Below, piece by piece: positions 9,129-50,975 of a stretch of 64,000 nucleotides of DNA (its first letter is position 1; each line of letters starts with the position of its first letter). The translations under genes were made by a program, and so were the position numbers. The stretch comes from Clostridia bacterium (lineage in GTDB: Bacteria; Bacillota; Clostridia; Christensenellales; Aristaeellaceae): the NCBI GenBank assembly GCA_900769075.1, contig CAAGFE010000111.1, forward strand, positions 752 to 64,751. Direction: 5' to 3'. The notes beneath the pieces were generated by a model. The model searched no databases and was not told the DNA's origin. It saw nothing but the letters and a program-made list of their open reading frames with translations.

Positions 9129-9365
9129 TCCCCCGTATGCATCCCGCATACGGGGGATACTGCGTATCGGCAAAGTGCCTGGGCACTTTGCCGAGAGGCT
9201 GAAGAATGTTTTCCTCCGCAAAATGGCATTATGCTGCGGAAAACGCCCCGCCCGACCGGCAAAGCCGGCCGATACGAATTCGGTCAGAGGGCCTGCGGGC
9301 CCTCCGACACCTCCCATGGGTTTGTTGATGATCTGTCCTCCGTATGCACCCTGCATACGGGGGAT
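9129..9365. repeat. Cluster of strong hairpins: two copies of a CCGTATGCA..TGCATACGG(GGGA) stem-loop (9129-9156 and 9339-9365) plus a perfect 11-bp inverted repeat GGCAAAGTGCC/GGCACTTTGCC (9169-9192)
   Basis: Direct reading. Stems are 9-11 bp perfect. None is followed by a U-tract. Confidence 0.5.
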
Positions 9366-9495
9366 ATTTGTTTGTTGGGGCATTCAGGCTGCGGCGCCCG
9401 AGAGCATGCGAAGCAGCGGAGAAGAATGTTTCAAAAAATTGAGAAACAACGCATAAAGCGAATGAAAATTGCTGACTATTACAGTTTTTTCTCTT

Positions 9496-9665: not shown

Positions 9666-12503
9666 GTGAAGCGTATGCTGAAAATCTGGAGTTGCCTCTG
9701 TGTGCTGCTTCTGATTCTGCCGCTGCATGCGGCCGGTGAAAGCCTGACGCAGCTTTATCTGGAACGCTCAGATAAGAATGATTATGCTGCGTATCTTGCT
9801 TCCGTGGGCGAACCGGCGATCGTGACAGACAGCATGAAGCTCTATGAGGCCGAAGAAGGGACGCTGCTGGCCGAGGGTGAACAGCTGACCTTCCCAGTGT
9901 CCGTGGCGCAGAGCATCTTCGGTTATCCCGTGCTGACCTACGCCATGACCGGCAGCAACATCCTGGACAACGGCATTACCCTGATGGTGGACGGCAAGCT
10001 CCCCTATGCGGAGTGCAGCACCCTGACCCTTGACAGCCTGTGGACGCAGAGCGGGACATTCAATCTGGACCGCTACGGCAACGAGGTCGTGTCCATGCCG
10101 GTGAAGTCCCACGACATCACCTCCTGCCGGCTGATGGGCAAGGCCGGGATGTACGCCAAGGGCATGGGCCTGTACCTGACAGCGGGCGAGCACGAGATCA
10201 CCGTCATCTGCCGGGTAGGCCCCTTCCGGCTGTACAGCATGACGCTGGAAGGCGAGATTCCCGTTCTGCAGGCCGCCCAGGGCAAGCCCCAGGGCGAAGC
10301 CCTCATCACCCTGCAGGCCGAGCAGGTGCCGGTGCGCAACAACCCCAACATCCGCCCGCTGGCTGATTACGACATGCGCCTGACGCCTTACTCCAGCGGC
10401 AAGAAGGTCATCAATCATATTGACGATACTTCCTATAAGTATCCCGGCGATACGCTCACCTACACCTTCACCGTGGAGGAAGCCGGGTATTACGCCATGG
10501 CGCTGCGGCTGAGGCAGGGCGAGCTGGCAAACTTCCCGGTATACCGCACGGTGCTGATCGACGGCGTCATCCCCGGCCCCGCCTTTGAGAATGCCGAGCT
10601 TGGCTACACCCTGCAATTCCGGAATCAGACCCTGCTGGATGAAAACGGCAGCCCTGCCCTCCTGCACCTGACCGAGGGCGAGCATACCCTGACGCTGCTG
10701 ACCAGCGTGGATCCCCTTCGCCCTTCACTCCTGCTTTTGCAGACCATCTCCGACGAAATTGCGGATCTTTCCCTGCAGATCACCAAGATCACCGGCGGCA
10801 ATACGGATTTCTTCCGGGACTTCGCGCTGGAGGATTTTGATTTTCACATCGCGGATGACCTGACCCGCTGGATCGGCGAACTGACGGCTGTCCGGGCAGA
10901 GCTGGGCAGGATCGCCCATGCGGAGGGGCGCGTCGGTGCGCTGTCCAACCTGGACATGGCCATTCAGGCCCTGGAACAGCTTGCCACGGAACCGGATAAT
11001 CTGCCCAAGAAGCTGACCCTGTTTTCCCAGGGTTCCTCCTCCGCGCGGGGCTTCCTGGTCAGCACGGTGGAGAGCCTCTCCACCAGCCCCGTGGGGCTGG
11101 ACGCGATCTACCTCTATACAAAGGAAGAGCTCCTGCCCAAGGAGCCTAATTTCCTGGAGCGCGCAGCCGACACCGTCCGGCGCTTTGCGGCTTCCTTCAC
11201 CGATGACAGCTATGTGGCGGACAACGCCGACGAAAGCAAGCTCCAGGTGTGGGTGAACCGTCCCCGTCAGTACCTGGAAATCCTCCAGCGCATGGCGGAC
11301 ACCACCTTCACCCCCGCCACGGGCATTGAGGTCGAGTTCTCCATCATGCCCGATGAGAGCAAGCTCATCCTGGCCAATGCCTCCGGCACCGCGCCGGACG
11401 TGGCGCTGGGGGTCTCCACCACCCGCGTGTATGACCTGGCAGTCCGCGGCGCGCTGAAGAACCTGCGGGCGTATGAGGACTTCGCCGCGGTGGGCAAGTG
11501 GTTCCCCACGGGATTGCTGATGCCCGCTGTCTGCGACGACGGCCTGTACGCCCTGCCGGAAACCTTCAACTTCAATGTGCTCTTCTACCGCAAGGATATC
11601 CTGGATTCCATCGGGCTGGAGGTGCCCAACTCCTACGAGGAAGTGCTGCAGATGCTCCCCGCGCTCCACCGCTACGGCCTGAACTACAACAATTTCGTGG
11701 CCAATGCGGTGGGCTACAAGGCCTTCTCCATCACCACGCCCTTCCTGTACCAGAACGGCGCTGTGCTGTATGCGGACGGCAATCTCCACGTTCAGCTGGA
11801 CACGGAGGAAGCCATCGAAGCCCTCAAGGTGATGACGGATTCCTTCGTCATCTATGACATGGACTTTGAGGTCAACAGCTTCTACCAGAGCTTCCGCGAC
11901 GGTACGCTCCCCATCGGCACCTCCAATTACGGCATGTACAACCTGGTGATGAACGCCGCGCCGGAGCTGGCGGACAAGTGGGCCATCGCCCTCTACCCCG
12001 GATTGACGGACGAAAACGGTGAGGTGCAGCGCTGGATCTCCGGCGCGGAGCAGAGCTGCTTCATCTTCGACAGCACCAACATGCCCGAGGCCTCCTGGCA
12101 GTTCCTCTCCTGGTGGATGAGCGAGGAGATCCAGACGGAGTTCGCCTTTACCCTCCAGTCCACCCTGGGCAATGAATACATGTGGAACAGCGCCAATTCG
12201 GCCGCCTACATGAACGCGCCCTGGCCCACGGAGCACAAGAAGATCATTGCCGAGCAGATGAACTGGATCTACGAAACGCCCCGCAACCCCGGTTCCTACA
12301 TGGTGGAACGTGAGCTCTCCAACGCAGTCAACGCCGTGTGCCTGGAGGGCAAAAACCTCCGCGCGGCGCTGGATGAAGCGATCAAGCGCATTGACCGTGA
12401 GCTGGAGCGCAAGCTGGAGGAATTTGGCCGCATGAAGGATGGACAGCTGACCCAGCCCTTCATCGTGCCGGACATCAATACAGTGAAGGAGTGGCTGGAA
12501 TGA
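9666..12503 (+). CDS. Large secreted bipartite glycan-binding/solute-binding protein (module 1): signal peptide + two CBM-like beta-sandwich repeats + C-terminal family-1 extracellular solute-binding domain, 945 aa
   Basis: GTG start at 9666 with AGGGGG RBS. Signal peptide [19 protein letters not shown]. The N-terminal half has two tandem repeats ending in AGEHEITV and [10 protein letters not shown]. The C-terminal half ([14 protein letters not shown]...) is a clear paralog of the SBP domain of 39627-42551. Confidence 0.7.
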
Positions 12504-13408
12504 CCAAGGCTGTCAAAATGCGCGGCCCCAGGGATCAACACATTGCATGGGCATTCCTCGCTCCCTACATCCTGCTGTTCACGCTGTTCATCATCGTGCC
12601 GGTGGTGATCGCCATCGGGCTGTCCTTCACGAACTTCAACACCATCCAGGCGCCTGATTTCGTGGGCTTCATGAACTATGTGAACCTCCTGACCCGCGAC
12701 GCGATCTTCATGCAGTACGTCCTGCCCAACACGATCCTCTTCGCCATCATCGTGGGGCCCGGCGGATACCTGCTGTCGTTCTTCCTGGCCTGGTGTCTGA
12801 GCCAGATCACCAAGGGCCCGCGCACGGTGCTGGCGCTGCTGATCTACAGCCCCTCCATGACCTCCGGCGTGGCGATGAACGTCGTCTGGCGCATCATCTT
12901 CTCCGGCGATGAGCGCGGCTACCTGAACGCGCTGCTGCTGAATCTGGGCTGGATCTCAGAGCCCATTCAGTTCCTGCAGTCCACCCAGTACCTGATGCCG
13001 GTGATGATCATCGTGGCCCTGTGGTCCTCCATGGGCGTGGGCTTCCTGGCGATGCTGGCCGGCATGATGAACATTGATGAGAGCGTCTATGAAGCGGCGG
13101 AGATCGACGGATTGCGCAACCGCTTCCAGGAAGTGTTCTACATCACCATTCCCATGATGAAGCCCCAGATGCTCTTCGGCCTGGTGATGGCGGTGGTCAA
13201 CACCTTCCAGGTGGGCCACATCGGCGTGAGCCTGTCCGGCGCGAACCCCACGCCCCAGTACGCAGGTCAGCTGATCGTCAACCTGATCGAGGACTACGGC
13301 TTCATCCGCTACGAGATGGGCTACGCATCCGCTGCCTCCGTGGTGCTCCTCGTGCTGATCTACACCATCACCCGCTGGAGCGGCAAGATGTTCAAGGAAG
13401 ACGAATGA
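12500..13408 (+). CDS. CUT1 ABC transporter permease, MalF/UgpA-type (module 1), 302 aa
   Basis: Six TM segments and the EAAEIDG permease signature. ATG at 12500 overlaps the upstream stop as ATGA. Paralog of 42548-43432. Confidence 0.8.
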
Positions 13409-13421
13409 AAGGGAGAACGCC

Positions 13422-15443
13422 ATGCGCATCAAACGCATCCTGGTATTCCTGCTCTGTTTGGCGCTTCTGCCCCTGACTGCCCGGGCGGATGAGGCGCCCT
13501 ACTACACCCTGACTGAGATCTACTCCAGCGAGGCGGCTCACTCTCCCGCAGGCTACCTGCCGGAGGGGACTTACACCGAGTTTGACGGGAAGGCCCTCAA
13601 GCGCCCGGCGGACGTGTTTGTAGATGACGAGGATCATCTGTTCATCTCCGATGAAGGCAACAAGCGCGTGCTGATGTGCACGCTGGAGGGCGAGTGGATC
13701 CGCACCTTCGGCAGCAAGGACCTCAAGCAGCCCGGCGGCCTCTACGTCCGGGACGGGAAGCTCTATGTGGCGGACCTGAAGCTCCAGCAGGTTGTGGTCT
13801 ATGACGTCGCAACCGGTGAGCAGGTCTTTGCCCTGGTGCATCCCGGCACGCCGCTGTACGGTGTGAAGGCCAGATTTGAGCCGCTGAAGGTCGCCGTGGA
13901 TGCGGCGGGCAGCATGTATGTCATCTCCAAGGGCAACACCAACGGCATTGCCCAGTTTGCCGCAGACGGCACCTTCCTTGGTTACTTCGGTGCCAATGAT
14001 ACCCGTCTCAGCCTGGGCGAGATGCTCAAGCGCCTCACCTACACCGAGGAGCAGCTGGCCAAGCTCAAGCGGGTGATCCCTGCCACACCCACCAGCGTGG
14101 ATATGGACGGGCGCGGTCTGCTCTATACCGTCACCACCGGCGTCAGGGGCGTGAAGCGCCTGAACATGTCCGGCCTGAACATCATGGAACCCACCGGCTG
14201 GGGGCATGACAACACCATTGACGTGGCGGTGGGCGCTCAGGAGAACATCTTCGTCATCAACGAGCTGGGCTACATCATGGAGTACACCCGGGACGGGCGC
14301 TGCCTGTTCTACTTCGGCGGCCAGGATCAGGATCGTACCCGCACGGGCCTGTTCGTCAACACGGTCGCCATCGACGTGGATCAGTACGGCAATCTGTACG
14401 TCCTTGACCGCGACAAGGCGCTGGTGCAGCGCTTTGCCGTGACGGACTATGCAAACCTGGTTCACCGTGGTCTGGCCCTTTATCAGGAGGGCCGCTACGC
14501 CGAAAGCCGCGAGCCCTGGGAACAGGTGCTGGAGCTCAACGCCATGTTTGACTATGCCCACATGGGTCTGGGCCGGGCGTATTACAAGCTGGAAATGTAC
14601 GAGGAGGCCATGCGGGCCTCCCGCCGGGGCGGGGACAAGGAAGGCTACTCCGATTCCTTCTGGGAAGTCCGCAATGTCGTCCTCCAGGGCGGCATCATGT
14701 GGATGATCGGCGGCCTGCTCGCGCTTTTCCTCGTCAGAAAGCTCTGGAAGCTGCTCAAGGCCCGTGTGAAGCCCGTGCAGACCTGCTGCGCCAGGGTGCA
14801 TGCCATCTTCGATGTGAAGCTGCTGCACGAGCTGAAATTCATGACCTACTTCCTCCGCAATCCGGCGGATGCCTTCTACGGCGTGAAGCATGAGGGCAAG
14901 GTCAGCGTCCTGTCCGCGACGATCCTCTACATCGCGGTGATCGTGATCTACATCGTCAACAAGTATTTCTGCGGCTTCCTGTTCAAGTCCATCCCCGACG
15001 GGCAGTTCGAGGTTGGCGTGGATCTGGTGCTTCTCATCGGCGGCATTGCCCTGTTCCTGATCGCCTGCAACCTGATCTGCTCCATCCGTGACGGCGAGGG
15101 CACCTTCAAGCAGATGTACTGCTCCTTCGCCTACGCGCTGGGCCCGTATGTGATGCTGGGGCCCATCACCTTCGCGCTGTCCTTCGTGCTGACGTTCAAC
15201 GAGGCGTTCATCATCACCCTCATGGATGTTGTCACGCTTGGCCTGTGCCTGATGCTGGTGGTGATGATGGTCAAGTCGCTCCAGAACTACAGCTTCACCG
15301 AAACCTTCGCGGCGCTGCTGCTGACGCTGTTCACCATGCTGATGATCGTCATTGCACTGGTCATTGCGGCGGCCCTGGTGGCGCAGCTGTGGGAGTTCCT
15401 GACGGCCGTGTGGAAGGAGGCCCGATTCTACAATGAAGTGTAA
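13422..15443 (+). CDS. Signal peptide + NHL-repeat beta-propeller + TPR + C-terminal Yip1-family polytopic membrane domain protein (module 1), 673 aa
   Basis: MRIKRILVFLLCLALLPLTARA signal peptide. Repeated ...LYVAD/...MYVISKGNTNGI... NHL blades. TPR-like ALYQEGRYAESREPWEQVLELNAMFDYAHMGLGRAYYKLEMYEEAM. Five C-terminal TM helices with the Yip1-like LRNPADAFYG motif. Paralog of 44328-46364. Confidence 0.7.
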   Translation: MRIKRILVFLLCLALLPLTARADEAPYYTLTEIYSSEAAHSPAGYLPEGTYTEFDGKALKRPADVFVDDEDHLFISDEGNKRVLMCTLEGEWIRTFGSKDLKQPGGLYVRDGKLYVADLKLQQVVVYDVATGEQVFALVHPGTPLYGVKARFEPLKVAVDAAGSMYVISKGNTNGIAQFAADGTFLGYFGANDTRLSLGEMLKRLTYTEEQLAKLKRVIPATPTSVDMDGRGLLYTVTTGVRGVKRLNMSGLNIMEPTGWGHDNTIDVAVGAQENIFVINELGYIMEYTRDGRCLFYFGGQDQDRTRTGLFVNTVAIDVDQYGNLYVLDRDKALVQRFAVTDYANLVHRGLALYQEGRYAESREPWEQVLELNAMFDYAHMGLGRAYYKLEMYEEAMRASRRGGDKEGYSDSFWEVRNVVLQGGIMWMIGGLLALFLVRKLWKLLKARVKPVQTCCARVHAIFDVKLLHELKFMTYFLRNPADAFYGVKHEGKVSVLSATILYIAVIVIYIVNKYFCGFLFKSIPDGQFEVGVDLVLLIGGIALFLIACNLICSIRDGEGTFKQMYCSFAYALGPYVMLGPITFALSFVLTFNEAFIITLMDVVTLGLCLMLVVMMVKSLQNYSFTETFAALLLTLFTMLMIVIALVIAAALVAQLWEFLTAVWKEARFYNEV

Positions 15444-17589
15444 ATGGCTGATCCTCCTGGCCCTGCTGCTGCTGCTGCTGCCGGCCCTTGCCCTGGCGGA
15501 CACGCATACGGTGGAAAACGAGCGCCTCCTCCTGACCATTGACGACGCCACCCTGTACATGACCGTCACCGACAAGGCCACCGGCAAGCACTTTGCAAGC
15601 AGCATCGAACCGGATTCCGGCAAGCTCACGGGATGGAAAGCCTTCGTGGCGTCCCCCCTGGTGCTGGATGTGGTGGACGGTCAGTCCGTCATCACCAAGC
15701 AGCAGGCGCTGATGGGCAATCAGGTCGCCATTGATTTCACGCTCCTGGCTAACGGCGCGGATGCACGGGTGGACTTCACCGCCCTGGGCGTGAGGATCAA
15801 GCTGGAGATCCGGCTGGACGAGGATTCCGTGGCCATCACCATGCCCAAGGACGGTCTGGAGGAATATCCGGTCTCCAAGGGCGTGGATAAGAACACCGGC
15901 GCGGAGAGCTTCACCGATACCCGCGTGTGCGGCGTGTACCTGCTTCCCTGCTTCGGTGCGACGGAGCTGGACGAGAAGTCGGGCTACATGCTGGTGCCGG
16001 AAGCGGCGGGGGCGCTCATCGCCTTCTCCAATGGCCGGGGCGTGGGCAACACCCCCTTCAGCAAGCGCATCTACGGCACGAACATCGGCGTGGACAAGTC
16101 GGTCATGACGGCTTTGAACCGCCCTGCCGAGCAGATCACCATGCCGGTTTACGGCATGGCGTATACCGATGAGGGGCTGGGCTACCTGGCCGTGGTGGAG
16201 AATGGCTCCGAAGCCGCCGAGATCATGGCCTACCCCGCCGGCGTCATCACCAATTACAACTGGGCGGCCGCGCACTTCACCCTGCGCGAGCAGTTCATCG
16301 CCCAGACCACCCGCACCCTGGGCCTCAACAGCCGCGAAAGCAAGCCCTACCTGCGGGACATGACCGTGCGCTTCTACATTCTCTCCGGCGAAGATGCAAG
16401 CTACACCGGCATGGCCCAACGCTACCGCAGAGCCCTGCAGGAAAGCGGCGGGCTCAACGCCGCGGATACCGCCTATCGCCCCCGCGTGGATTTTCTGGGG
16501 GCCGAAAGCGCGGAGTTCCTGCTGTGGAACAGCGTGGAGCCCATGACCACCGTGGCGCAGATGGGGGAGATCATCGCAAGCTGCGATGAGAGCGGCGTCA
16601 GCGATCCGCTGGTGATCTACCGGGGCTGGCAGCCCGGCGGCCTGACCTGGGCGCTCGGCAGCGGAAGCGTGGAGCTGGAGCGCAAACTGGGCAAAGCGGA
16701 TGACCTGATCGCCCTGGCCCGGTCTGTCAGGGAAAGCGGCGGAAAGTTCATGCTGGAGATCGACCCGGTGCAGGCCAATCCCAACCGTGTGTACAACAAT
16801 CGGGTGGATGTGGTGCGCACCATCGGCCAGACCATCGCTGAGCATCAGACCGGCAAGGAGCTTTTCCCGACCATGTACTACCTCACGCCCAGCCGTTCAA
16901 GCGAGATTCTCCAGGCGATTTCGGACAAATGGGGCGGGCATGTGGACGGCCTGGCGCTGGTCACGCTGCCCAACACCCTGTTCTCCTATTACGCCCGCGG
17001 CGGCAATCACTCCCGCGGCGACACGCTGGCCGCCTATCAGGACATGCTGGCAAACACCAACGCGGTGCTTGCCCTGCAGAACCCCCTCAGCGGCTACCTG
17101 GAGCAGACGGATGTGTTCCTCGATCTGCCCCTGGATACCACCAGCTATTCCTTCCTGTCGGCGGAGGTGCCCTTCCTGCCCATGGTGCTCAGCGGGAGCA
17201 TCCCCTACTATTCCACCTGGCTGAACTTCGAGAGCAACCAGCACAAGGCGCTGCTCAAGCTGGTGGAGTACGGCGCCTATCCCTCCTGGCTGCTGACCGG
17301 TGAGGACGTGCAGCCCCTGATCCACACCAACTCCTCCGATGTGTTCTCCGCCAAATGGGACGTGCTGCTGCCCACGATGGCGGACATCAACGCCCGGCTG
17401 CAGGCCCTGCACGAGGCCATCGGCGGAAGCCGCATGATCAAGCATGAGCTGCTGGCGTCCGACGTCGTCAAGGTGACCTACGAAAACGGGACGCTGGTAT
17501 ACGTCAACTACCGCAAGGCGGAGGCCGCCATCGACGGCGTGAGCATTCCGGCCCTGGACTACCTGGTGAAAGGAGGCGATGCGCGATGA
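15433..17589 (+). CDS. Secreted protein of unknown function (module 1), 718 aa; N-terminal beta-rich region + putative (beta/alpha)-barrel-like core; DUF-type, possibly glycoside-hydrolase-like
   Basis: Signal peptide MKCKWLILLALLLLLLPALALA. Conserved blocks shared with 46348-48915 (PVYGMAYTDEG / PVFGMVHTDSE; IYRGWQPGGLT / TYRGWQKNGLT; FLPMVLSGSIPYY / FLTIALSGQIPYY). Start overlaps the upstream stop by 11 nt. Confidence 0.6.
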   Translation: MKCKWLILLALLLLLLPALALADTHTVENERLLLTIDDATLYMTVTDKATGKHFASSIEPDSGKLTGWKAFVASPLVLDVVDGQSVITKQQALMGNQVAIDFTLLANGADARVDFTALGVRIKLEIRLDEDSVAITMPKDGLEEYPVSKGVDKNTGAESFTDTRVCGVYLLPCFGATELDEKSGYMLVPEAAGALIAFSNGRGVGNTPFSKRIYGTNIGVDKSVMTALNRPAEQITMPVYGMAYTDEGLGYLAVVENGSEAAEIMAYPAGVITNYNWAAAHFTLREQFIAQTTRTLGLNSRESKPYLRDMTVRFYILSGEDASYTGMAQRYRRALQESGGLNAADTAYRPRVDFLGAESAEFLLWNSVEPMTTVAQMGEIIASCDESGVSDPLVIYRGWQPGGLTWALGSGSVELERKLGKADDLIALARSVRESGGKFMLEIDPVQANPNRVYNNRVDVVRTIGQTIAEHQTGKELFPTMYYLTPSRSSEILQAISDKWGGHVDGLALVTLPNTLFSYYARGGNHSRGDTLAAYQDMLANTNAVLALQNPLSGYLEQTDVFLDLPLDTTSYSFLSAEVPFLPMVLSGSIPYYSTWLNFESNQHKALLKLVEYGAYPSWLLTGEDVQPLIHTNSSDVFSAKWDVLLPTMADINARLQALHEAIGGSRMIKHELLASDVVKVTYENGTLVYVNYRKAEAAIDGVSIPALDYLVKGGDAR

Positions 17590-18560
17590 AAAAGCTACGC
17601 ATCGGCCTGGTCACCCGGCGCGAAATGAAGGGCTATGTGTTCCTGCTCCCGTGGCTGATTGGTTTTGTGACCTTCTTTCTGATCCCGCTGGTTCAGTCTG
17701 TGTGGTACTCCTGGCATGATGTGAAGGTCACCGCCAATGGCCTGAAAATGGTTTGGGTCGGCTGGGATAATTACCGTTACATCTTCCGGGGAGATACCGT
17801 CTTTGTGGAACAGCTGAGCAACTTCTTCACCGATGCCGTGCTGCGCCTGGCGGTGATTCTGGTGTTCTCCCTGGTGATCGCCATGATGCTCAATCAGCCC
17901 CTGAGGGGCAAGGGGATCTTCCGCACGCTGTTCTTCCTGCCCATCATCGTGGTGTCCGGCCCCGTGCTGGAGCGCCTGGTGAACGAGGGCGCAACGGCGG
18001 TGCCCCTGATTGAATCCTACGGTGTGAACGGAATCGTTGAGGCGATGCTGCCGCCCATGCTGGCGCGTCCGCTCTCCGGCCTGTTCAGCCAGCTGATCCT
18101 GGTGCTGTGGTACTCCGGCGTGCCGATTCTCATCTACATGACCGGCCTGCAGAAGATTGACAGCACCCTCTATGAAGCTTCCATGATCGACGGCGCCAAC
18201 GGCTGGGTTTCCTTCTGGAAGATCACCCTGCCTGCGCTGCGCCCGATGATCCTCATCAACGGCGTGTATACGATGGTGTTCCTGGCAACCACGGGCCTGA
18301 ATGAGGTCATCGCAACGATCAATGCGCGCATGTTTGCCGACAGCAGCCGGGGCGGCGGCTACGGCATTGCCAGCGCGATGGCCTGGGTGTACGCGCTGTG
18401 CCTGGCGGCAGCCCTGATCGTCCTGCTGCTGATCACCAGGGAACGCAAAGGGCAGCAGATCGCCATCCAGAAGACCGGCGAGCAGATCGCCATTGAGCGG
18501 ATGCACGCAGAGCGCGCCAGGAACATGAAGCGGAAGGGAGGAAAGAGGCATGGCAGATAA
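17586..18560 (+). CDS. CUT1 ABC transporter permease, MalF-type (second transporter of module 1), 324 aa
   Basis: TM-rich protein with EASMIDGANGW permease loop. ATGA overlap with the upstream gene. Paralog of 48905-49894. Confidence 0.8.
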   Translation: MKKLRIGLVTRREMKGYVFLLPWLIGFVTFFLIPLVQSVWYSWHDVKVTANGLKMVWVGWDNYRYIFRGDTVFVEQLSNFFTDAVLRLAVILVFSLVIAMMLNQPLRGKGIFRTLFFLPIIVVSGPVLERLVNEGATAVPLIESYGVNGIVEAMLPPMLARPLSGLFSQLILVLWYSGVPILIYMTGLQKIDSTLYEASMIDGANGWVSFWKITLPALRPMILINGVYTMVFLATTGLNEVIATINARMFADSSRGGGYGIASAMAWVYALCLAAALIVLLLITRERKGQQIAIQKTGEQIAIERMHAERARNMKRKGGKRHGR

Positions 18561-19518
18561 GCCGATCCTTCACAAGGTGAAAAGGATCGCCATTGGCGGC
18601 TACCGTCAGATGGGCCTGCTGCCCAAGGCGGCGCTGTATGTGATGCTGATCTCCCTGTGCTTTGTGTATGTGTACCCGATCCTCCACATGGGGATCACCT
18701 CTCTCAAATCCCTGACCGACCTGCTGGACCCCTCCGTGCAGTGGCTGCCCCATGAGATCACCTTCAGCAACTACACCCAGGCGCTGGACATCATGGGCTT
18801 CTCCGAGCATCTGGTGGATACGCTGCTGGTGACGGTGGTTCCGGCACTTTGCCAGACGTTTTCCTGCGCGCTGGCGGGCTACGCCTTCGCCCGCTTCCGC
18901 TTCAAGGGGCGCGGCATCCTCATGGCCTGCGTGCTGCTGACGTTCATCGTGCCCTTCCCGGTGCTCATGGTGCCCACCTACACCATGTATGTGGACTACG
19001 GCATCATCCGCACCATCTGGACGATGATCCTGCCCGCCATCACCGGGCAGGGCTTGCGGGCGGCGATCTTCATCCTCATCTACCGCGCCACCTACGAGCA
19101 GATCCCCTTCTCCCTGGATGAGGCCGCCCGGGTGGACGGCGCCAGCGAAACCCGCGTGTTCCTGACCATCGGCGTGCCCCTGGGCCTGCCGGCGATGATC
19201 ACCAGCTTCCTCTTCTCCTTTGTGTGGTACTGGAACGAAACCTATTCCACCTCCCTGTTCATGGGCAACGCCGCCATGGGCAGCACGAAATACGTTTCCA
19301 CCCTGGTGATGGAGCTGGCCAAGTTTGAGGACAGCTACCTGGCCTATCTGCAAAAGGCAGGCGGATGGGCAGCCCAGAGCGGCGGCGCCAACATTCAGAA
19401 CGAGGCCGTCACCATGGCCGGCACGATGCTGGTCATTGCGCCGCTGCTGATCGTTTACTTCTGCCTCCAGCGCTATTTCACCGAGGCCATTGATCGCAGC
19501 GGCATCACCGGTGAATGA
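18550..19518 (+). CDS. CUT1 ABC transporter permease, MalG-type (second transporter of module 1), 322 aa
   Basis: DEAARVDGAS permease loop. GGGAGGAAAGAGG RBS. Paralog of 49910-50884. Confidence 0.8.
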   Translation: MADKPILHKVKRIAIGGYRQMGLLPKAALYVMLISLCFVYVYPILHMGITSLKSLTDLLDPSVQWLPHEITFSNYTQALDIMGFSEHLVDTLLVTVVPALCQTFSCALAGYAFARFRFKGRGILMACVLLTFIVPFPVLMVPTYTMYVDYGIIRTIWTMILPAITGQGLRAAIFILIYRATYEQIPFSLDEAARVDGASETRVFLTIGVPLGLPAMITSFLFSFVWYWNETYSTSLFMGNAAMGSTKYVSTLVMELAKFEDSYLAYLQKAGGWAAQSGGANIQNEAVTMAGTMLVIAPLLIVYFCLQRYFTEAIDRSGITGE

Positions 19519-19609: not shown

Positions 19610-20953
19610 ATGAAGAAACTGCTTTCTCTGGTTCTGGCATGCATGATGATGCTGTCCCTGGTACCCGCGATGGCCGAAGAAGGCCTCGCGCCCATGACCA
19701 CTGAAAACATCACCCTGACCGTAGCCCATTGGGGCCAGGCCGAAGCCGGCGAGCCCGAAGTCATCGAGGCACTGATCGCCCAGTTTGAGGCTGCCTATCC
19801 CAACATCAATGTGGAATTCGTTGCCATCGACCAGGGCACCTGGGATCAGGGCCTGACCAACCTGGCCTCCGAGGGCAAGCTGCCCGACGTGTTCTGGGTC
19901 TTCAACGTGCCCAACGCCGTCGCCAACGGCTGGGCGCTGGACATCACCGAGTTCTTCGAGAAGGACCCTGACGCACAGGAGCTCTATCCTGCCATGCGTG
20001 AGGCGGCCAAGATCGGCGGCAGGAACTACTCCTACCCCGCTGTCATGTTCCCCCATGTGATGTTCATGAACGTGACCCTGTTCGAGAAGTACAACGTGGA
20101 ACTGCCCGCCATCGACTGGACCTGGGATGACTACTTTGAGCTGGCTGACGAGCTGAGCCACCCCGAGGAGTACAACTTCGGCATCTCCAACCCCCTGTAC
20201 ACCGACCTGTTCCCGGCTGCCTACAACGGCAACCAGGGCAAGTGGGGCTGGGACGGCGAGAAGTTCAACTTCGACGAGGTTTGGGTCAACGCCGTTGAGA
20301 AGCGCGCGGAGGTCATCAACAACAAGATCTGCGAGTGGATGAGCGCTGACGAAAAGACCGCCGTGCTGGGCGACCCCGGCGCATGGCCTCCCGGCATGGG
20401 CCGCACCGCCATGCACATTGACTGGCCCTGGACCATCGCGCAGTTCCAGACCTTCCGCAAGGATGAAACCGGCTGTGAATGGGTGTTCTACCCCCTGCCC
20501 ATGGGCCCCGGCAAGGGTGAGCTGGCCATCGTGGACAACGGCGTGATCTCCGCCGCCACCGAGCATCCCCGCGAGGCGTGGGAGCTGGCCAAGTGGATGT
20601 CCTGGGGCCCCCAGGCTGCGCTGTGCCGCCAGAAGACCTACCGCGACCTCGGCTATGCCGTGTCCCGCATGCCCGTTGTCTCCACGCCCGAAGTGTGGCA
20701 GGATCTGCTGGACAACGCCACTGAGGATCTGGTGCCCTTCTACCGCGGCTTCATCGAGCGCGGCGTGAATATCGTTCCCTCCAACTGGCCCGTTGCGCCC
20801 GGCTGGGGCACCATTGACGCTTACTACGGCGGCAACGACATCGACGGCAAGATCCTGCGCGGCGAGCTGTCTGCCTCCGACGTGGCGGACGAGCTGCAGG
20901 CCGTGGCGGACCAGGGCGTGGCCGACCACCTGAAGGCCCTGCTGGGCGAGTAA
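19610..20953 (+). CDS. Extracellular solute-binding protein, family 1 (second transporter of module 1), 447 aa
   Basis: MKKLLSLVLACMMMLSLVPAMAEEG signal sequence. AAAGGAGA RBS 9 nt before ATG at 19610. Paralog of 50976-52406. Confidence 0.75.
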   Translation: MKKLLSLVLACMMMLSLVPAMAEEGLAPMTTENITLTVAHWGQAEAGEPEVIEALIAQFEAAYPNINVEFVAIDQGTWDQGLTNLASEGKLPDVFWVFNVPNAVANGWALDITEFFEKDPDAQELYPAMREAAKIGGRNYSYPAVMFPHVMFMNVTLFEKYNVELPAIDWTWDDYFELADELSHPEEYNFGISNPLYTDLFPAAYNGNQGKWGWDGEKFNFDEVWVNAVEKRAEVINNKICEWMSADEKTAVLGDPGAWPPGMGRTAMHIDWPWTIAQFQTFRKDETGCEWVFYPLPMGPGKGELAIVDNGVISAATEHPREAWELAKWMSWGPQAALCRQKTYRDLGYAVSRMPVVSTPEVWQDLLDNATEDLVPFYRGFIERGVNIVPSNWPVAPGWGTIDAYYGGNDIDGKILRGELSASDVADELQAVADQGVADHLKALLGE

Positions 20954-21085: not shown

Positions 21086-21949
21086 ATGCGCAAAACACGC
21101 TTCAATCCGGATCATTTCCATCCGAACCAGATCCCCATGTATCTGGTTCTGGTTCCGCTGGCGGTTTTCATGGCCGTCCCCATCGTGTTCATCATCAACC
21201 ACGCCTTCAAGCCCATCGAGGAGCTCTTTGCCTTCCCGCCGCGCTTCCTGGTGGAGAACCCCGTGCTGGATAACTTCACCCGTCTGGCACGCCAGGCGAG
21301 TGCGGGCGGCATCTCCATCAGCCGCTACATTTTCAACAGCCTCATCGTGACCGCTTCGGTGGTGTTCCTGAGCATGGCGATGTCCTCCATGGCCGCCTTC
21401 GCGCTGAGCAAGCTGCGCTTCCGCGCCAAGGCCACGCTGATGGAGATCAACAACCTCGCCATGATGTTCGTGCCCATCGCGGTCATCATTCCCCGCTATT
21501 TGCTGGTGGACAAGCTTGGCATGATCAATACCTATTTCGCCCACATTCTGCCGCTTCTGGCCCTGCCGGTGGGCATGTTCCTGGTCAAGCAGTTCACCGA
21601 TCAGGTGCCTGATTCCCTGATCGAAGCCGCCATCGTCGATGGCGCCGGATACTTCAAGGTCTACCGCAGGATCATCCTGCCGATGATCAAGCCTGCGCTG
21701 GCGACGGTCGCCATCCTGGCTTTCCAGTCCGTGTGGAACAACACGGAGACCTCTGCCATGTACACCAACAAGGAAAGCATGCGCACACTGACCTTCTATA
21801 TGAGCACGCTTTCCAGCAACACCAACTCCGTTGCCGGACAGGGCATGGCGGCCGCCTCGTCGCTGATCATGTTCCTGCCCAACCTGATTCTGTTCATTCT
21901 CTGCCAGAGCAAGGTCATGAACACCATGGCCCACTCCGGTATCAAATAA
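21086..21949 (+). CDS. CUT1 ABC transporter permease, MalG-type, displaced partner of 12500-13408 (module 1), 287 aa
   Basis: Clear paralog of 43449-44315 (AFKPIEELFAFPPRFLVENP vs AFKPMDELFAFPPKFFVSNP; shared C-terminus VMNTMAHSG). In module 2 the counterpart sits directly after the MalF-type gene. GGAAAGGTGG RBS. Confidence 0.8.
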   Translation: MRKTRFNPDHFHPNQIPMYLVLVPLAVFMAVPIVFIINHAFKPIEELFAFPPRFLVENPVLDNFTRLARQASAGGISISRYIFNSLIVTASVVFLSMAMSSMAAFALSKLRFRAKATLMEINNLAMMFVPIAVIIPRYLLVDKLGMINTYFAHILPLLALPVGMFLVKQFTDQVPDSLIEAAIVDGAGYFKVYRRIILPMIKPALATVAILAFQSVWNNTETSAMYTNKESMRTLTFYMSTLSSNTNSVAGQGMAAASSLIMFLPNLILFILCQSKVMNTMAHSGIK

Positions 21950-26580: not shown

Positions 26581-26626
26581 GCCACCCGGAAAAACGTTGA
26601 CGAATGGAGTGCAGCAGTTGAAGAAC

Positions 26627-27562
26627 ATGGATCTGAACCTGTCCGATCCCGGCAGGCTGCAAAAGGTTGCCCATGCGCTGTCCAATGAATTGCGTCTCAA
26701 AATCCTGTCCCTGCTGGACGAATGCAGCATGAACGTGCTGGAGCTCAGCCAGCGGCTGGGCGAGCCCATCTCGACCGTGTCCAGCAGCATTGTGGTGCTG
26801 GAGGCGGCGGATCTCATCCGCACGGAGCGCCAGAGCGGCGTGCGCGGCGTATCCAAGCTGTGCAGCCGCAAGAAGGACAACATCACCATCCACCTGGCGA
26901 ATACCGCCAAGCGGGAATTGGAGAGCTTCTTCTACAATATGCCCATCGGTGCCTATTCGGATTTTGACGTGACCCCGACCTGCGGGCTGCTCAGCCACGA
27001 GAGCAATCTGGGTGAAAACGATAACCCGGCCTCCTTCTATGACCCGGCGCGCTTTATGGCGCAGCTGCTGTGGTTTCAGCAGGGCTATGTGGAGTATCGC
27101 TTTTCCTCCCAGGCGCTCATGGAATATGAAGCCAAATGCCTGGCCATCTCCTTTGAGGCCTGCTCCGAGGCGCCCAACTACCGCAAGGATTGGCCCAGCG
27201 ACATCACCGTCAGCATCAACGGCGTGGAGCTGGGTACCTGGTGCTGCCCAGGGGATTTCGGCGGCAGGCAGGGGCGCTACACGCCGGAATGGTGGCTGCC
27301 ATCCTCCACGCAGTACGGCCTGCTGAAGCGCTGGAAGGTCACGCCCGAGGGCTGCTACCTGGACGATGTGCGCATCTCCGATGTCACGCTGGCCCAGCTG
27401 CGCCTGACGGACAAGCCCTACATCGCGGTGCGGATCGCGGTCAAGCCCGATGCGGCGCATCAGGGCGGCATCAACCTCTTTGGGGAAAAATTCGGCGATC
27501 ATCACCAAGCGATTGTGATGCGCCTGGATTGTACAGCAAAACAAACGATTTCGGACACATGA
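26627..27562 (+). CDS. ArsR-family HTH transcriptional regulator with about 220-aa C-terminal domain of unknown function, 311 aa (alternative TTG start at 26597)
   Basis: MDLNLSDPGRLQKVAHALSNELRLKILSLLDECSMNVLELSQRLGEPISTVSSSIVVLE is a typical ArsR/SmtB HTH. The long Trp/Cys-containing C-terminal domain has no recognisable family. Confidence 0.6.
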   Translation: MDLNLSDPGRLQKVAHALSNELRLKILSLLDECSMNVLELSQRLGEPISTVSSSIVVLEAADLIRTERQSGVRGVSKLCSRKKDNITIHLANTAKRELESFFYNMPIGAYSDFDVTPTCGLLSHESNLGENDNPASFYDPARFMAQLLWFQQGYVEYRFSSQALMEYEAKCLAISFEACSEAPNYRKDWPSDITVSINGVELGTWCCPGDFGGRQGRYTPEWWLPSSTQYGLLKRWKVTPEGCYLDDVRISDVTLAQLRLTDKPYIAVRIAVKPDAAHQGGINLFGEKFGDHHQAIVMRLDCTAKQTISDT

Positions 27563-38175: not shown

Positions 38176-39630
38176 ATGCGGATACGCAAAATCGCAGCGA
38201 TCCTTCTGGCCGCCCTGCTGGGCATGAGTCCCCTCGCCGCCGCAGCGGAGGACGCCATCCCCAACCGCAGCCTGCCCATGCCCAAGTTCATGAAGAACGT
38301 GGCAGTCCATGATCCGTCGATCATCAAGGCAGACGACGGATACTATTACATTTACGGCTCCCACATGGCAGCGGCCCGAAGCAGCGACCTGATCGACTGG
38401 CAGATGATCTCCGCCGGGCCCTCCAATGCCGCCTGCACGCTGGTGGACAACGTGCAGACCCAGATGCAGGAAGCGCTCTCCTACGCCAGGACGACCACCT
38501 TCTGGGCGCCGGACGTGGTGCGGCTGGCCAACGGCACCTATGTGATGTACTACTGCACCTGCGAGGGCTCCAGCCCGCTGTCCGCCCTGGGCATCGCCTA
38601 TGCGGACAAGCCGGAAGGCCCCTTTGTCAACCAGGGCATCATCCTCAAATCCGGATACAGCGGGTATAACGCCACGGTCTACCCCAACGCGGTGGATCCC
38701 TGCACCTTCTTTGACAAAGAGGGCAGGCTGTGGATGGTCTACGGCTCCTACTCCGGCGGCATCTACATCCTGGAGATGGACCCCGAAACCGGCTTCCCGC
38801 TGACCGGGCAGCCCACCTACGGCAAACGGCTGCTGGGCGGCAATCACGCCCGCATCGAGGCGCCCTACATCCTGTACAGCCCGGATACGGACTACTACTA
38901 CCTGTTCCTGTCCTTCGGCGGGCTGGGCGCGGCGGACGGATACAACATCCGCGTCTGCCGGTCGAAGAACCCCGACGGCCCCTATGAGGACGCCCTGGGG
39001 CAGGACATGATCAAGTGCATGGGTCGCCCCGGCACCTTCTTCAACGACCCGGATTACGAGCCCTATGGCGTGAAGCTCCTGGGCGGCTACGAATTCCTCG
39101 CGGCCGAGGGCGACAGGAACCGCATCACCGTCGCCTACCGCAGCCCCGGTCACAACAGCGCCTATTATGATGAAGAAACCGGGCGGTACTTCCTCGTGTT
39201 CCATACCCGCTTCGCCAACAGCGGCGAGTCCTTCCAGGTGCGCGTCCATCAGATGTACATGAACGCCGAGGGCTGGCCGGTGGTGTCCCCGCTGCGCTAC
39301 GCGGGCGAGAAGCCGGAAACGGTGGATGCGTCCCTGCAAACGGGTGCGTACAAGGTGCTGCTGCACGAGCGGGACATCAACAAGGCGGAGCATGAGAGCC
39401 AGGTGATGACGCTGAACGCGGACGGAACCGTCACCGGCGATCACACCGGCACCTGGGCCTGCGAGGACGGCGTGAACGTCCAATTGACCCTGGACGGTCT
39501 CGCCTACACCGGCGTGATGCATACCGCCCTGGATGCTTCCCAGCGAACCTGGGTCACCTGTATTTCCGCACTGGATGAAAACGGCGCTGCGCTCTGGGCC
39601 ACCCGGGCGTACAGCAACGATCAAGAATGA
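38176..39630 (+). CDS. Secreted GH43 family endo-alpha-1,5-L-arabinanase-like enzyme, 484 aa
   Basis: Signal peptide MRIRKIAAILLAALLGMSPLAAAA. VHDPSIIKADDGYYYIYGSH is an arabinanase-type GH43 N-terminal blade. GGAGG RBS 8 nt upstream. Stop overlaps the next gene start as ATGA. Confidence 0.75.
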   Translation: MRIRKIAAILLAALLGMSPLAAAAEDAIPNRSLPMPKFMKNVAVHDPSIIKADDGYYYIYGSHMAAARSSDLIDWQMISAGPSNAACTLVDNVQTQMQEALSYARTTTFWAPDVVRLANGTYVMYYCTCEGSSPLSALGIAYADKPEGPFVNQGIILKSGYSGYNATVYPNAVDPCTFFDKEGRLWMVYGSYSGGIYILEMDPETGFPLTGQPTYGKRLLGGNHARIEAPYILYSPDTDYYYLFLSFGGLGAADGYNIRVCRSKNPDGPYEDALGQDMIKCMGRPGTFFNDPDYEPYGVKLLGGYEFLAAEGDRNRITVAYRSPGHNSAYYDEETGRYFLVFHTRFANSGESFQVRVHQMYMNAEGWPVVSPLRYAGEKPETVDASLQTGAYKVLLHERDINKAEHESQVMTLNADGTVTGDHTGTWACEDGVNVQLTLDGLAYTGVMHTALDASQRTWVTCISALDENGAALWATRAYSNDQE

Positions 39631-42551
39631 ATGGGGTGAATCGCTTGCGCACAAGGATGCTTGTACTGGTCATGGCATTGTGCTGCCTGTTCTCCTTCGC
39701 CCTGGCGGAGGACGCCATGACAACGCAGACCGTGGAAACGCTCTATACCGCGCTTTCCAGGGGTTACACGCTGCCCGTCTACGCGGGAGAGGATGTGAGG
39801 GCGGAAACCGCCCTGTCCCTGCCGCTGAACGCGACGGGAGAGGTGACGGTGACCGCGCCGGAGGACGCCCAGTATGAAATCTGGCTGTCCTACGTCAACA
39901 CCACCACCTCGACCCTGCCCACGGAAATGACCGTGACCATCGACGGAAAGGTGCTCTGCGCGGAAATGCAGCGCGTGAAGTTCAATTCCATCTGGGTGGA
40001 TGACGGCGTTTTCCCCACGGATCGCTACGGCAACGAGATCGCCACCACGCCCTATCCGGCGGAGGGCACCCTGGACGCCGGCATCTGCGATTCCACCTTC
40101 CGCACCGCCGAGCCCATGCTCTTCGAGCTGACGGCCGGTGAGCACACCCTCCGCTTCTCCGTGCAGGACGGCGGCATGGAGGTTTCCGCCGTGACGCTGA
40201 AGGCGCCCGTCCAGGTGCCCGAAAAGCAGAGCGGCGATGCCAAGGGTGACAAGCTCATTGTCATCGAGGCGGAACAGATTGCGGCCCGCAACGAGTCCGC
40301 CATCCGCGGCGCGGGCGAGTTCAACGCCCGGCTGTCCCCCTACGACAACAACTACCGCAGGGTGAACTTCCTCGACGGCGCGTCCTTCGATGAGGCGGGC
40401 GATATGGTCACCTGGCGCTTCACCGTGGAGGAAAGCGGCTGGTATTACCTGGGCGCTTACTACCGCCAGTCCGCCCGCGCGGATTTCCCCACCTATGTGG
40501 ACATCTACGTGGACGGCGCGATCCCCCATCAGGGCGCCCAGCGGGTCGCCTTTGACTACACCACCTCCTTCAAAACCATGCAGGCCAAGGCCGGGGACGA
40601 ACCGCTGACGCTCTACCTGGAAAAGGGCGAGCACACCCTGTCCTTCTGCATCAATGCCGCCCACCTGACCCCTGTGTACGAGACCATCGACGTGCTGCTG
40701 GACGAGATCAACGTCCTGTCCAACGACGTCAAGTCCCTCATGGGCGGCGCCACGGCGGATGCCTACCGCACCTACAACATGCTCAAGAATTTCCCCGACC
40801 TGGTGGAACGCCTCAATGGCTGGGCCGACCAGTGCGAGGAATGCGTGGCGTACACCAGGCAGTTCTCCTCCAAGCAGTCCGGCGCAGCGTTCTCCTCCAT
40901 GACCCTGAGCGCGGATCAGCTCCGCCGCCTGGCCGAGGAGCCGGAGAACCTGCCCCGCCGCATGTCCGAGTTCTCCACCGGCTCCAACTCCGCTGCCCGC
41001 ATGCTCGCCCTGCAGCTGACCGACATGGCTGTCAACGACCTGTCCATTGACCAGATTTACCTCTACCAGGCGGACGCCAAGCTGCCCGCCAAGGTCAACT
41101 GGCTCCAGAACATGTGGGCGGGCGTGGAGCGCTTCTTCACCTCCTTCACCAAGAAGGACTACACCGCAGGCGCCGCCAAGGAGACGACCTGGGTGGACAA
41201 GAACGGCAAGGAACAGCCGGTTATCCAGGTGTGGATGGGCCGCAGCCGCCAGTATGTGGAAACGCTGCAGAACATGATCGACACCCAGTTCACGCCCGAA
41301 ACCGGCATCAAGGTCAACCTGTCCCTGATGCCCGACGCGAACAAGCTGGTGCTGGCCAATGCCGCCGGGACCGCGCCGGACGTGGTGCTGTCGCTGCAGT
41401 ACGTCGTGCCCTCCTACCTGAACATCCGCGGCGCGCTTTACGATCTGACAAAGTTCGAGGACTTCGGGGAGGTCGCCCAGCGCTTCTCCAGCGGCCTGTT
41501 CATCCCCTACACCCTGAAGGACGGCATCTACGCCATGCCCGAAACGGTCAACTTCTGGGTGATGTTCTACCGCAAGGACATCCTGGAATCCCTCCAGATT
41601 GAGGTGCCGGACTCCATGGACGAGGTCAAGCTCATCCTGCCCGAGCTCCAGCGCCGCTCCATGAATTTCTACTTCCCCACCGCCGGCATGGTCGGCACCA
41701 AGGTGTTCCCGGGCACGCTGCCCCTGATCCTCCAGTCCGGCGGCTCCATCTATGACACCACCATCGGCGATACCACCCTGGACAGCGAGATCTCCCTCAA
41801 GGGCTTCCGCGAGATGACCGAGCTGTTCACCGTGTACAACATGCCCACGGACGTGCCCTCCCCCGGCTTCTACCAGCAGTTCCGCGACGGCACGCTGCCC
41901 ATCGGCATTGCTGATCTGTCCACCTACAACCTGCTGCTCAACGCCGCGCCCGAGCTGGACGGATTGTGGGACATCGCCCTGTTCCCCGGCCTGACCAACG
42001 ACAGCGGCGAGGTGGAACGCTGGACCACCGGCGGCGCGGAAACCATGGCGATCATGTCCGCCGCCGAGGACCACGACCGCCTGGACGAAAGCTGGACCTT
42101 CCTGAAGTGGTGGTCCTCCGCGGAAGTCCAGAGCCAGTTCGGCAACCTGCTCCAGTCCACCTACGGCTCCGAGTACATCTGGCCCACCGCCAATACCCAG
42201 GCCTTCTCCGAGCTGCCGCTGCGCAGCGCCCACAAGAAGGTCATCATTGAGCAGATGGAGTGGATGACCGAAGCGCCCTGGGTGCTGGGCACCTATATGC
42301 TGGAGCGCGAGCTGTCCAACGCCTTCATCTCCGTGACGGCGGACGGCGTGGAGGCCCGCCGCGCGATGGATACCGCCGTGAAGCGCATCAACCGTGAAAC
42401 CTACCGCAAGCTGGAAGAATTCGGCTATTACAAGGACGGGCAGATGCTCGAGGAATTCCCGACCCCCACGGCGGAGGTTGTGAAGAGAATCATCGAGGAA
42501 TGGAACGCCGCCCATCCTACCCATGATGCAGAGGAGGGTACAGTGCAATGA
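39627..42551 (+). CDS. Large secreted bipartite glycan-binding/solute-binding protein (module 2), paralog of 9666-12503, 974 aa
   Basis: Signal peptide ...[17 protein letters not shown]. Two CBM-like repeats ([12 protein letters not shown] and [12 protein letters not shown]). C-terminal SBP domain [18 protein letters not shown]... is colinear with module-1 protein. Confidence 0.7.
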
Positions 42552-43432: not shown

Positions 43433-43448
43433 GAAAGGAGGGAATCCC

Positions 43449-49894: not shown

Positions 49895-49909
49895 GGAGGG
49901 GGAAAGACA

Positions 49910-50884: not shown

Positions 50885-50975
50885 TCCCCTGCCCCGGATG
50901 CGCCGGGGAGGACATCCCATTCCCATGCATCAAAGCCTGGTCAGAGGCTTTAGATAAAAAAAGGAGGACACCCCA

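Follow-up and report, generated by a model that had tools for sequence, protein, structure and literature searches.

An NHL-TPR-Yip1 membrane protein encoded in a conserved eight-gene transporter cassette of Clostridia and Bacilli

To our knowledge, YknW, a bare Yip1 protein, is the only bacterial precedent for the role of a member of the Yip1 family. This protein, found in Bacillus subtilis and B. amyloliquefaciens, is reported to have a role in modulating the assembly of the YknXYZ ATP-binding cassette (ABC) complex, and not in transport (PMC4887032). In this work, we have analysed a 64-kb stretch of DNA from a Clostridia bacterium (contig CAAGFE010000111.1; "the window" refers here to this whole stretch), whose proteins were scanned against Pfam. 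At positions 13422–15443, the window encodes an NHL-TPR-Yip1 protein, labelled NTY from now on. NTY resembles YknW only loosely, in holding a Yip1 core and in being encoded in an operon with ABC membrane components, but it differs from it in the presence of a 400-amino-acid (aa) extracellular head and an extra transmembrane (TM) helix. The partners of both proteins are also different. While YknW works with an exporter of the MacB type that includes a membrane fusion protein (MFP) and serves in resistance to peptide toxins, NTY is encoded with two type I (BPD_transp_1) sugar importers, and no MacB, FtsX or MFP families were found with Pfam among the cassette proteins of the window.

Eukaryotic Yip1/YIPF proteins (PF04893) share with NTY a five-TM core with a cytosolic N-terminal side, as well as a D-x-x-Y-G type motif located before the first core helix. 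These proteins participate in the traffic between the endoplasmic reticulum and the Golgi with Rab GTPases and, in contrast to NTY, exhibit no signal peptide, lumenal propeller or link to ABC transporters.

The head of NTY resembles PknD from Mycobacterium tuberculosis (1rwi, 1rwl), in which a six-bladed NHL propeller is also located outside the membrane and joined to a single TM helix (sequence E-value of 1e-10, target-normalised template-modelling score (TM-score) of ~0.78). However, the output of PknD is a cytoplasmic Ser/Thr kinase, whereas NTY holds a Yip1 core, and Pfam detected neither a kinase nor any other output family in it. NTY, unlike PknD, also presents a TPR stalk, and a helical segment is inserted between its blades 3 and 4. 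As it lacks an output domain, NTY is not a PknD-type sensor. The Pizza designer proteins are six-bladed NHL propellers like the head of NTY.

The genes that accompany NTY, which together with it constitute an eight-gene cassette, resemble the AraNPQ system of B. subtilis, which functions with MsmX. Both include two BPD_transp_1 permeases and a solute-binding protein (SBP) of the SBP_bac_1/8 families, lack an ATPase gene in the operon and are located beside arabinan-type glycosidase genes. Nevertheless, canonical CUT1 systems consist of three genes, while in the cassette two of these systems are welded with a giant SBP (BIG), NTY and a DUF5696 protein. The cassette can also be likened, but only functionally, to the Sus-like utilisome of Bacteroidetes, where a surface binder, a glycosidase and a transporter are encoded together; the components of the latter are non-homologous and depend on TonB at the outer membrane. 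The uptake of complex plant glycans by Gram-positive bacteria of the gut and the rumen, from capture to import, is much less understood than Sus-type systems, and three of the eight products of the cassette are of no known function, namely NTY, DUF5696 and the N-terminal half of BIG.

Architecture and conservation of NTY

An earlier note on this DNA had presented the product of 13422–15443 as an unusual fusion of an NHL propeller and a TPR segment to a Yip1 domain. The fusion was confirmed for the two copies of the window (all features are on the plus strand unless otherwise indicated): NTY1 (13422–15443, 673 aa), encoded in module 1 and supported by its open reading frame (ORF), Pfam, homologs and an AlphaFold2 (AF2) model, and its paralog NTY2 (44328–46364, 678 aa), encoded in module 2 and supported by Pfam and alignment. 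The two proteins are 38% identical over their full length and share the same layout, consisting of a signal peptide, a six-bladed NHL propeller, two TPR hairpins, an extra TM helix, a basic linker and a five-TM Yip1 core. However, this fusion is not rare: the members of a large family, already annotated as "YIP1 family protein", are normally built in this way. Over its full length, NTY is matched by more than 300 cluster representatives (665–705 aa), and a misassembly or an artefactual fusion is ruled out by these hundreds of full-length homologs. In a collection holding one genome per species, at least 583 NTY loci were found in Clostridia and Bacilli, a count that is a lower bound. The carriers include Lachnospiraceae, Oscillospiraceae, Butyrivibrio, Acetatifactor, Anaerocolumna and Herbinix and, among Bacilli, Evansella, Gracilibacillus, Sporosarcina and Bacillus caseinilyticus, and several genomes hold two copies. 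The nearest genome among the matches listed is the uncultured Clostridiales metagenome-assembled genome SIG357 (92% identity).

A profile restricted to the Yip1 region matched 1,551 representatives (50% clustering), and the best 150 are mostly fusions of 640–850 aa, the shorter forms among them being fragments and a few possible bare forms. Homologs appear in the databases only as "YIP1 family protein", as hypothetical proteins or under generic propeller labels. The family is thus already known in databases under a generic name, and no publication on the NTY family, DUF5696 or the eight-gene cassette was found in the literature.

According to Pfam, the Yip1 domain (PF04893) scores 39.1 bits in NTY1 and 35.7 bits in NTY2 (cut-off of 28.6), covering positions 3–172 of the 173 of the model, and the FLRNPADAFYG and MLRNPYDACYG motifs that the earlier note had pointed out were identified in the respective copies. 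The NHL profile scores 32.8 and 39.2 bits, respectively (cut-off of 20). TPR_11 reaches 28.9 bits in NTY1 (cut-off of 26.8), and the TPR matches of NTY2 are sub-threshold, so the TPR assignment is marginal by sequence, but clear in the modelled structure. Searches against NCBIfam retrieved only sub-threshold matches to generic NHL and TPR families, such as ScyF and NlpI, indicating that no curated family exists for the NTY architecture.

The AF2 model of NTY1, built from an alignment of 78 homologs (mean predicted local distance difference test of 85.3, predicted TM-score of 0.71), starts with a signal helix at residues 2–14. This helix is part of the signal peptide (aa 1–22, 13422–13487), deduced from a hydrophobic segment at residues 1–24 and from AxA sites in homologs, with a predicted cleavage after ARA. 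The propeller (aa 26–340, 13497–14441) is modelled as 24 strands arranged in six blades (29–340), with the helical insert (aa 193–219) between blades 3 and 4. It is followed by the two TPR-like hairpins (aa 342–403, 14445–14630), consisting of four helices in the model and matching TPR_11, and by the juxtamembrane YSDxFWEVRN motif, which leads into the extra helix TM1 (aa 404–438, 14631–14735). The model exhibits here a long helix (406–448) that contains the hydropathy peak (418–438). The basic cytoplasmic linker with the NPADAxYGxK motif (aa 439–495, 14736–14906), defined by charge counts in homologs, forms short helices at 450–490, and the Yip1 core (aa 496–673, 14907–15440), supported by Pfam and the model, consists of helices 496–516, 531–555, 562–589, 592–621 and 625–672, the last of which protrudes outside.

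The fold of the head has also been corroborated by searches against known structures. Foldseek matched it to the NHL domains of TRIM71, Brat, Thin and PknD (target-normalised TM-score of ~0.8), and phmmer against PDB sequences retrieved Pizza and PknD with E-values from 1e-10 to 1e-19. With Foldseek, the Yip1 core obtained no PDB match, as most of the structures retrieved correspond to the propeller.

In NTY homologs, AxA-type sites appear right before a conserved APY(Y/K)T sequence, in agreement with the cleavable signal peptide suggested in the earlier note. The number of TM helices has to be refined, since the Yip1 core does contain the five helices claimed there, but the whole protein holds six, with the extra one (418–438) located ahead of a linker of ~55 aa. 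Hydropathy profiles of 16 diverse homologs consist of an N-terminal hydrophobic segment, ~395 acidic residues and then the membrane helices, with TM1 above the threshold in 15 of them. The loop after TM1 (41–54 residues) contains 7–14 Lys/Arg versus 2–5 Asp/Glu, with 8–14 Lys/Arg in these 15 homologs. It is the combination of the signal peptide and this basic loop which places the NHL/TPR head outside, and not in the cytoplasm, a predicted topology that coincides with that proposed in the earlier note. With the extra helix TM1, the N-terminal side of Yip1 is predicted to face the cytoplasm again.

Conservation along the protein is uneven. The lowest values correspond to TM1 (0.52) and the linker (0.41), and the highest to the TPR and blade 3 (both 0.71), the NPADAxYG motif (0.73) and the juxtamembrane YSDxFWEVRN (0.78), as well as to the loops of the Yip1 core, where conservation reaches 0.73 in GFLFK (outside), 0.79 in RDGEG (inside) and 0.84 in LTYNEA (outside). 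TM1 is a poorly conserved tether for the head, followed by a Yip1 core of five TM helices that is strongly conserved. The propeller holds the conserved motifs DxxNxR, GNTNGI, FLGYFGAN, GYIxEY and FGGxD, and, judging by the strand order of the model, DxxNxR, GNTNGI, FLGYFGAN and FGGxD would lie in the B-C and D-A loops, on the top face of the propeller, to which GYIxEY is assigned as well. No catalytic-type conserved site stands out in NTY, the conserved residues being mostly those of the NHL repeat motif and the top-face loops.

Apart from these full-length proteins, all the matches of 210–230 aa to this Yip1 subfamily are found on contigs shorter than 1.6 kb. Three of them (L081–L083, 213–228 aa) come from very short metagenomic contigs, and in L082 the Yip1 ORF shares 4 nt with an upstream ORF, the end of which resembles the TPR and juxtamembrane region of NTY. 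L082 represents either a naturally split gene or a frameshift.

The eight-gene cassette and the partners of NTY

The cassette was surveyed in 80 fetched loci (L001–L080) by tblastn with the proteins of the window. Wherever the flanking sequence is long enough, the gene order is BIG, Ua, Ub, NTY, DUF5696, Da, Db and a small lipoprotein SBP, NTY being the fourth gene. ABC components and DUF5696 adjoin NTY in all 80 loci with sufficient flanking sequence, which answers affirmatively the question of co-occurrence raised in the earlier note. In addition, NTY is found directly upstream in each of three contexts seeded from DUF5696, and three more cassettes recovered through Yip1-profile matches exhibit the same layout, with divergent heads (760 and 853 aa) in which Pfam detects Yip1 only. 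The only layout variant described here concerns Ub, which has been moved to the end in module 1 of the window and in L001–L033, and follows Ua in module 2 and in L034–L080. The cassettes fall into two types separated by a deep split. In the 24 complete type 1 loci, all the components are coherent in their assignment to a module; a per-component assignment of all loci to module 1 or 2 had to be abandoned, as type 2 loci are too distant from both modules.

The strict conservation of the gene order is accompanied by a link to genes for arabinofuranose-type glycosidases. The eight-gene cassette, rather than NTY alone, is the unit of interest. Upstream of 47 loci, 94 ORFs were inspected, which include 21 of glycoside hydrolase (GH) family GH43, 15 of GH51 and 12 of GH2, ~20 encoding ArsR-type helix-turn-helix (HTH) proteins and only 2 encoding ABC_tran proteins. 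Genes of GH43, GH51 or GH2 are the usual neighbours of the cassette. In the window, the neighbours of the modules are genes for GH43, GH51, GH2 and GH27 enzymes and for an ArsR-type HTH regulator.

In module 1, BIG1 (9675–12503) is followed by the permease gene Ua1 (12491–13408), identified with Pfam as BPD_transp_1 and whose product is 65% identical to Ua2, and then by NTY1, DUF5696 protein 1 (15433–17589), the permease pair Da1 (17586–18560) and Db1 (18550–19518), jointly spanning 17586–19518 and also recognised by Pfam, the small SBP1 (19610–20953, with its start revised to the Met of MKKLLSLVLAC and identified with Pfam, its orthologs being mostly lipoproteins) and the displaced permease Ub1 (21086–21949, the ortholog of Ub2, to which it is 62% identical). 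In module 2, the upstream half (39627–44315) holds BIG2 (39627–42551), Ua2 (42548–43432) and Ub2 (43416–44315), and NTY2 is followed by DUF5696 protein 2 (46348–48915) and by the downstream half (48905–52406), with Da2 (48905–49894), Db2 (49910–50884) and SBP2 (50976–52406). The gaps or overlaps between neighbours in the cassettes of the window are of 4–17 nt, and the NTY1 gene is indeed flanked by BPD_transp_1 permease genes, as the earlier note had indicated.

Each module thus contains two permease pairs and two SBPs (SBP_bac_1/8). No sugar-type ABC ATPase is encoded in the 64-kb window, where the sole ABC_tran gene is that of SufC (58614–59357), located beside SufBD. Since the cassette lacks an ATPase, the four permease pairs of the window would have to use one encoded elsewhere. 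CUT1 importers of Firmicutes commonly share a single ATPase, and each module would provide the permeases and SBPs of two CUT1-type importers, with a shared ATPase assumed to act in trans.

BIG1 (942 aa) and BIG2 (974 aa) consist of a signal peptide, an N-terminal extension of ~510 aa and a CUT1-type SBP domain, the latter supported in BIG1 by matches to SBP_bac_8 and SBP_bac_1. The extension has no family match in either protein, apart from a weak one to carbohydrate-binding module (CBM) family CBM35 in BIG2, and the matches to SBPs of the PDB are confined to the C-terminal part. The alignment with BIG2 locates the start of BIG1 at 9675, and not at the listed 9111, which falls in upstream non-coding sequence. 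A 31-nt palindromic element (TCCCCCGTATGCATCCCGCATACGGGGGATA) is also present upstream of BIG1 in two copies (9129–9159 and 9336–9366), 207 nt apart. This possible terminator hairpin or small repeat has a 14-nt core that appears three times in the window versus 0.02 expected.

A census of lipoboxes across the fetched loci, based on a rough regular expression, identified this motif in 49 of 63 small SBPs, but only in 4 of 72 BIG proteins, 11 of 77 DUF5696 proteins and 2 of 79 NTY proteins. Neither BIG1 nor BIG2 of the window holds a lipobox. The DUF5696 protein is modelled with a GH129/DagB-like glycosidase fold, similar to those of the GH129 enzyme NagBb (5wzn) and the GH129-like DagB (5opq), even though the identity with them is only 15–16%. 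DUF5696 protein 1 is secreted, while protein 2, with a likely TTG start at 46348 that overlaps NTY2 by 17 nt, exhibits a lipoprotein-type signal (MLRRFNQKLLSLVLAAMMLLGC).

The genes of NTY and DUF5696 are not only adjacent, but overlapping. In module 1, the ATG of DUF5696 is found at 15433 and the stop codon of NTY1 ends at 15443, which is the 11-nt overlap reported in the earlier note. This arrangement is widespread: in 73 of 77 loci, the DUF5696 frame has a start codon 8–14 nt ahead of the point where the stop codon of NTY ends (11 nt in 59 loci, 14 nt in 11, 8 nt in 3). A Shine–Dalgarno (SD)-like motif precedes each overlapping start inside the C-terminal codons of NTY. In the window, this motif is AAGGAGG, formed by the conserved K/G-E-V codons of the NTY C-terminus (15412–15443). 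As the SD motif is built from these codons, the invariant Glu666 of NTY may be under dual constraint. Altogether, the overlap implies a conserved translational coupling, and hence a matched synthesis of both proteins.

Covariation of evolutionary rates was analysed in 60 complete cassettes, separately for each cassette type, by means of rank partial Mantel tests with 3,000 permutations in which the mean distance of the other components was controlled. When sequences share their phylogeny, such tests tend to be liberal, so that the following values are only suggestive. NTY covaries above all with BIG, with a partial r of 0.54 in type 1 and 0.41 in type 2 (p = 0.0003 in both), followed by Ub (0.23 and 0.26, p ≤ 0.002) and Ua (0.22 and 0.16, p of about 0.02). 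The values are not significant for DUF5696 (0.15 and 0.06) and for the small SBP (−0.02 and 0.10), and those for Da and Db are inconsistent between types (−0.23 and −0.07 in type 1; 0.24 and 0.32 in type 2). When all 60 loci were pooled, a trio formed by BIG, NTY and DUF5696 seemed to emerge, but the DUF5696 part vanished once the types were analysed separately, the pooled signal being due to the deep split between type 1 and type 2.

The covariation can be traced to specific regions of both proteins. The N-terminal extension of BIG covaries with the NTY head (0.55 and 0.45 in types 1 and 2) and also with the membrane half of NTY (0.35 and 0.41), whereas the SBP domain of BIG shows no consistent covariation with NTY (0.36 and 0.37 in type 1; −0.18 and 0.00 in type 2). 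This rate signal is suggestive of the giant SBP, rather than DUF5696, being the closer partner of NTY.

Possible roles of NTY

The reading that we put forward, tentatively and with somewhat less than even confidence, is that NTY, at the first importer, acts in the membrane as a dock or adaptor for the giant SBP, which is not lipidated. NTY would be a non-catalytic accessory subunit of this importer, the propeller/TPR head of which would dock BIG through its N-terminal extension of ~500 aa, and its Yip1 core would pack laterally against the upstream permease pair Ua/Ub. In this way, BIG would be kept beside its transporter at the surface of cells that lack an outer membrane. DUF5696, whose synthesis would be matched to that of NTY by the overlapping start, would probably trim the glycan near the same site, and the other products would enter through the second importer, whose SBP is an ordinary lipoprotein. 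Such an arrangement would resemble the modulation by YknW of the assembly of the YknXYZ exporter. Of the two roles contemplated in the earlier note, that of a scaffold receives indirect support from the lipobox pattern, the coupling overlap and the covariation with the BIG extension, and nothing supports that of a gate. If NTY were indeed an accessory protein of importers, the role of bacterial Yip1 proteins would extend from an exporter, as in YknW, to type I importers, and the retention of a non-lipidated binding protein on a cell lacking an outer membrane would be explained.

Several observations weigh against the docking of BIG by NTY. The N-termini of some BIG proteins resemble uncleaved signal anchors, so that BIG may need no tether. 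The BIG extension and the NTY head may just share a fast-evolving extracellular regime, although DUF5696, which is also secreted and fast-evolving, represents an internal negative control with respect to this explanation. The DUF5696 protein of module 2 is a lipoprotein, and yet NTY2 keeps every motif, indicating that tethering DUF5696 is not the whole role of NTY. Moreover, the partner of YknW is an exporter of the MacB type, and not a type I importer. Finally, conservation is very high in the cytoplasmic NPADAxYG and RDGEG motifs, for which a passive anchor would have no use, a hint of a regulatory or coupling function. These motifs, the persistence of NTY2 beside a lipidated DUF5696 and the possible self-anchoring of some BIG proteins speak against NTY being a purely passive anchor.

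A more ambitious version, which we consider rather doubtful, extends the dock to the entire cassette. Its products would constitute, in monoderm bacteria, a single and hitherto unrecognised cell-surface supercomplex in which the Yip1 protein would physically couple the two importers, BIG and the GH129-like glycosidase, with the cytoplasmic face of Yip1 coordinating the shared ATPase, in what would be a Gram-positive counterpart of the utilisome.

The conservation of these cytoplasmic motifs, dispensable for a pure anchor, is also one of the arguments for considering NTY a ligand-sensing regulator, an explanation that we regard as unlikely. The head would bind a glycan or another signal, and the juxtamembrane helix and the Yip1 core would switch the permeases or the shared ATPase. 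The resemblance of the head to the extracellular sensor domain of PknD is consistent with this idea, as is the conservation of the protein, which peaks in the juxtamembrane motif and on the two faces of the Yip1 core. Nevertheless, no recognisable cytoplasmic output domain was identified by Pfam or AF2, only ~55 residues being available between TM1 and the core, and TM1 and the linker, which are the least conserved segments, fit poorly with a signal-transmitting helix. The covariation with the N-terminal extension of BIG is also more in keeping with a protein partner.

Beta-propellers can act as lectins, and that of NTY, with its conserved top-face loops, could instead be a lectin-like module capturing polysaccharide at the cell surface. 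NTY would then feed DUF5696 and the SBPs, as a surface glycan-binding protein equivalent, in Gram-positive bacteria, to those of Bacteroidetes. An outward head encoded in a locus with GH43, GH51 and GH2 genes would be in agreement with this function. However, a substrate-binding site is expected to vary with the substrate, and the motifs of the head are kept across cassette types and even in a cassette whose neighbours are not related to arabinan, while the small SBP diverges to 25–38% identity within the same cassettes. This, together with the absence of any match to CBM-like families in Pfam, makes the lectin function quite improbable.

The possibility that NTY is a membrane-anchored enzyme, with a propeller of the lactonase/lyase kind (SGL, PAL or Vgb) acting on a sugar derivative, is very remote and was rejected, because the weak matches to SGL, Vgb_lyase and DUF5128, the presence of PAL at rank 50 in Foldseek and the names "sugar lactone lactonase YvrE" or "pgl1" that some sources give to homologs are opposed by scores below the cut-offs (23 versus 26.3 bits for SGL, in copy 2 only, and 15 versus 50 for Vgb), by best structural matches that are non-catalytic NHL domains, and by the lack of an invariant His or metal-type triad in 78 sequences, whose invariant Asp, Asn and Arg match the NHL structural motif. 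The lectin and enzyme functions are thus less likely, and a regulatory or coupling role has still to be considered alongside the docking of BIG.

Neighbouring genes and minor observations

A variant cassette is found in L084/L085 (4973–18777), encoding a head protein of 760 aa without a Pfam NHL match. One of its downstream permeases, with 942 aa, is far above the usual size, and its neighbours, a gene of the NAGPA family among them, are not arabinan-related.

Between the two modules of the window, the minus strand holds at 31744–36388 genes for a SIMPL (DUF541) protein, a DUF4349 protein and an ECF sigma factor, after which the gene for HtpG (Hsp90) is located on the plus strand. This trio and HtpG appear unrelated to the sugar loci.

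The ArsR-type HTH protein of the window (26597–27562) consists of 321 aa, and its C-terminal half is uncharacterised. In many other genomes, similar proteins of ~305–320 aa recur beside the cassette, including that of L087, and the protein of the window is probably the regulator of the locus.

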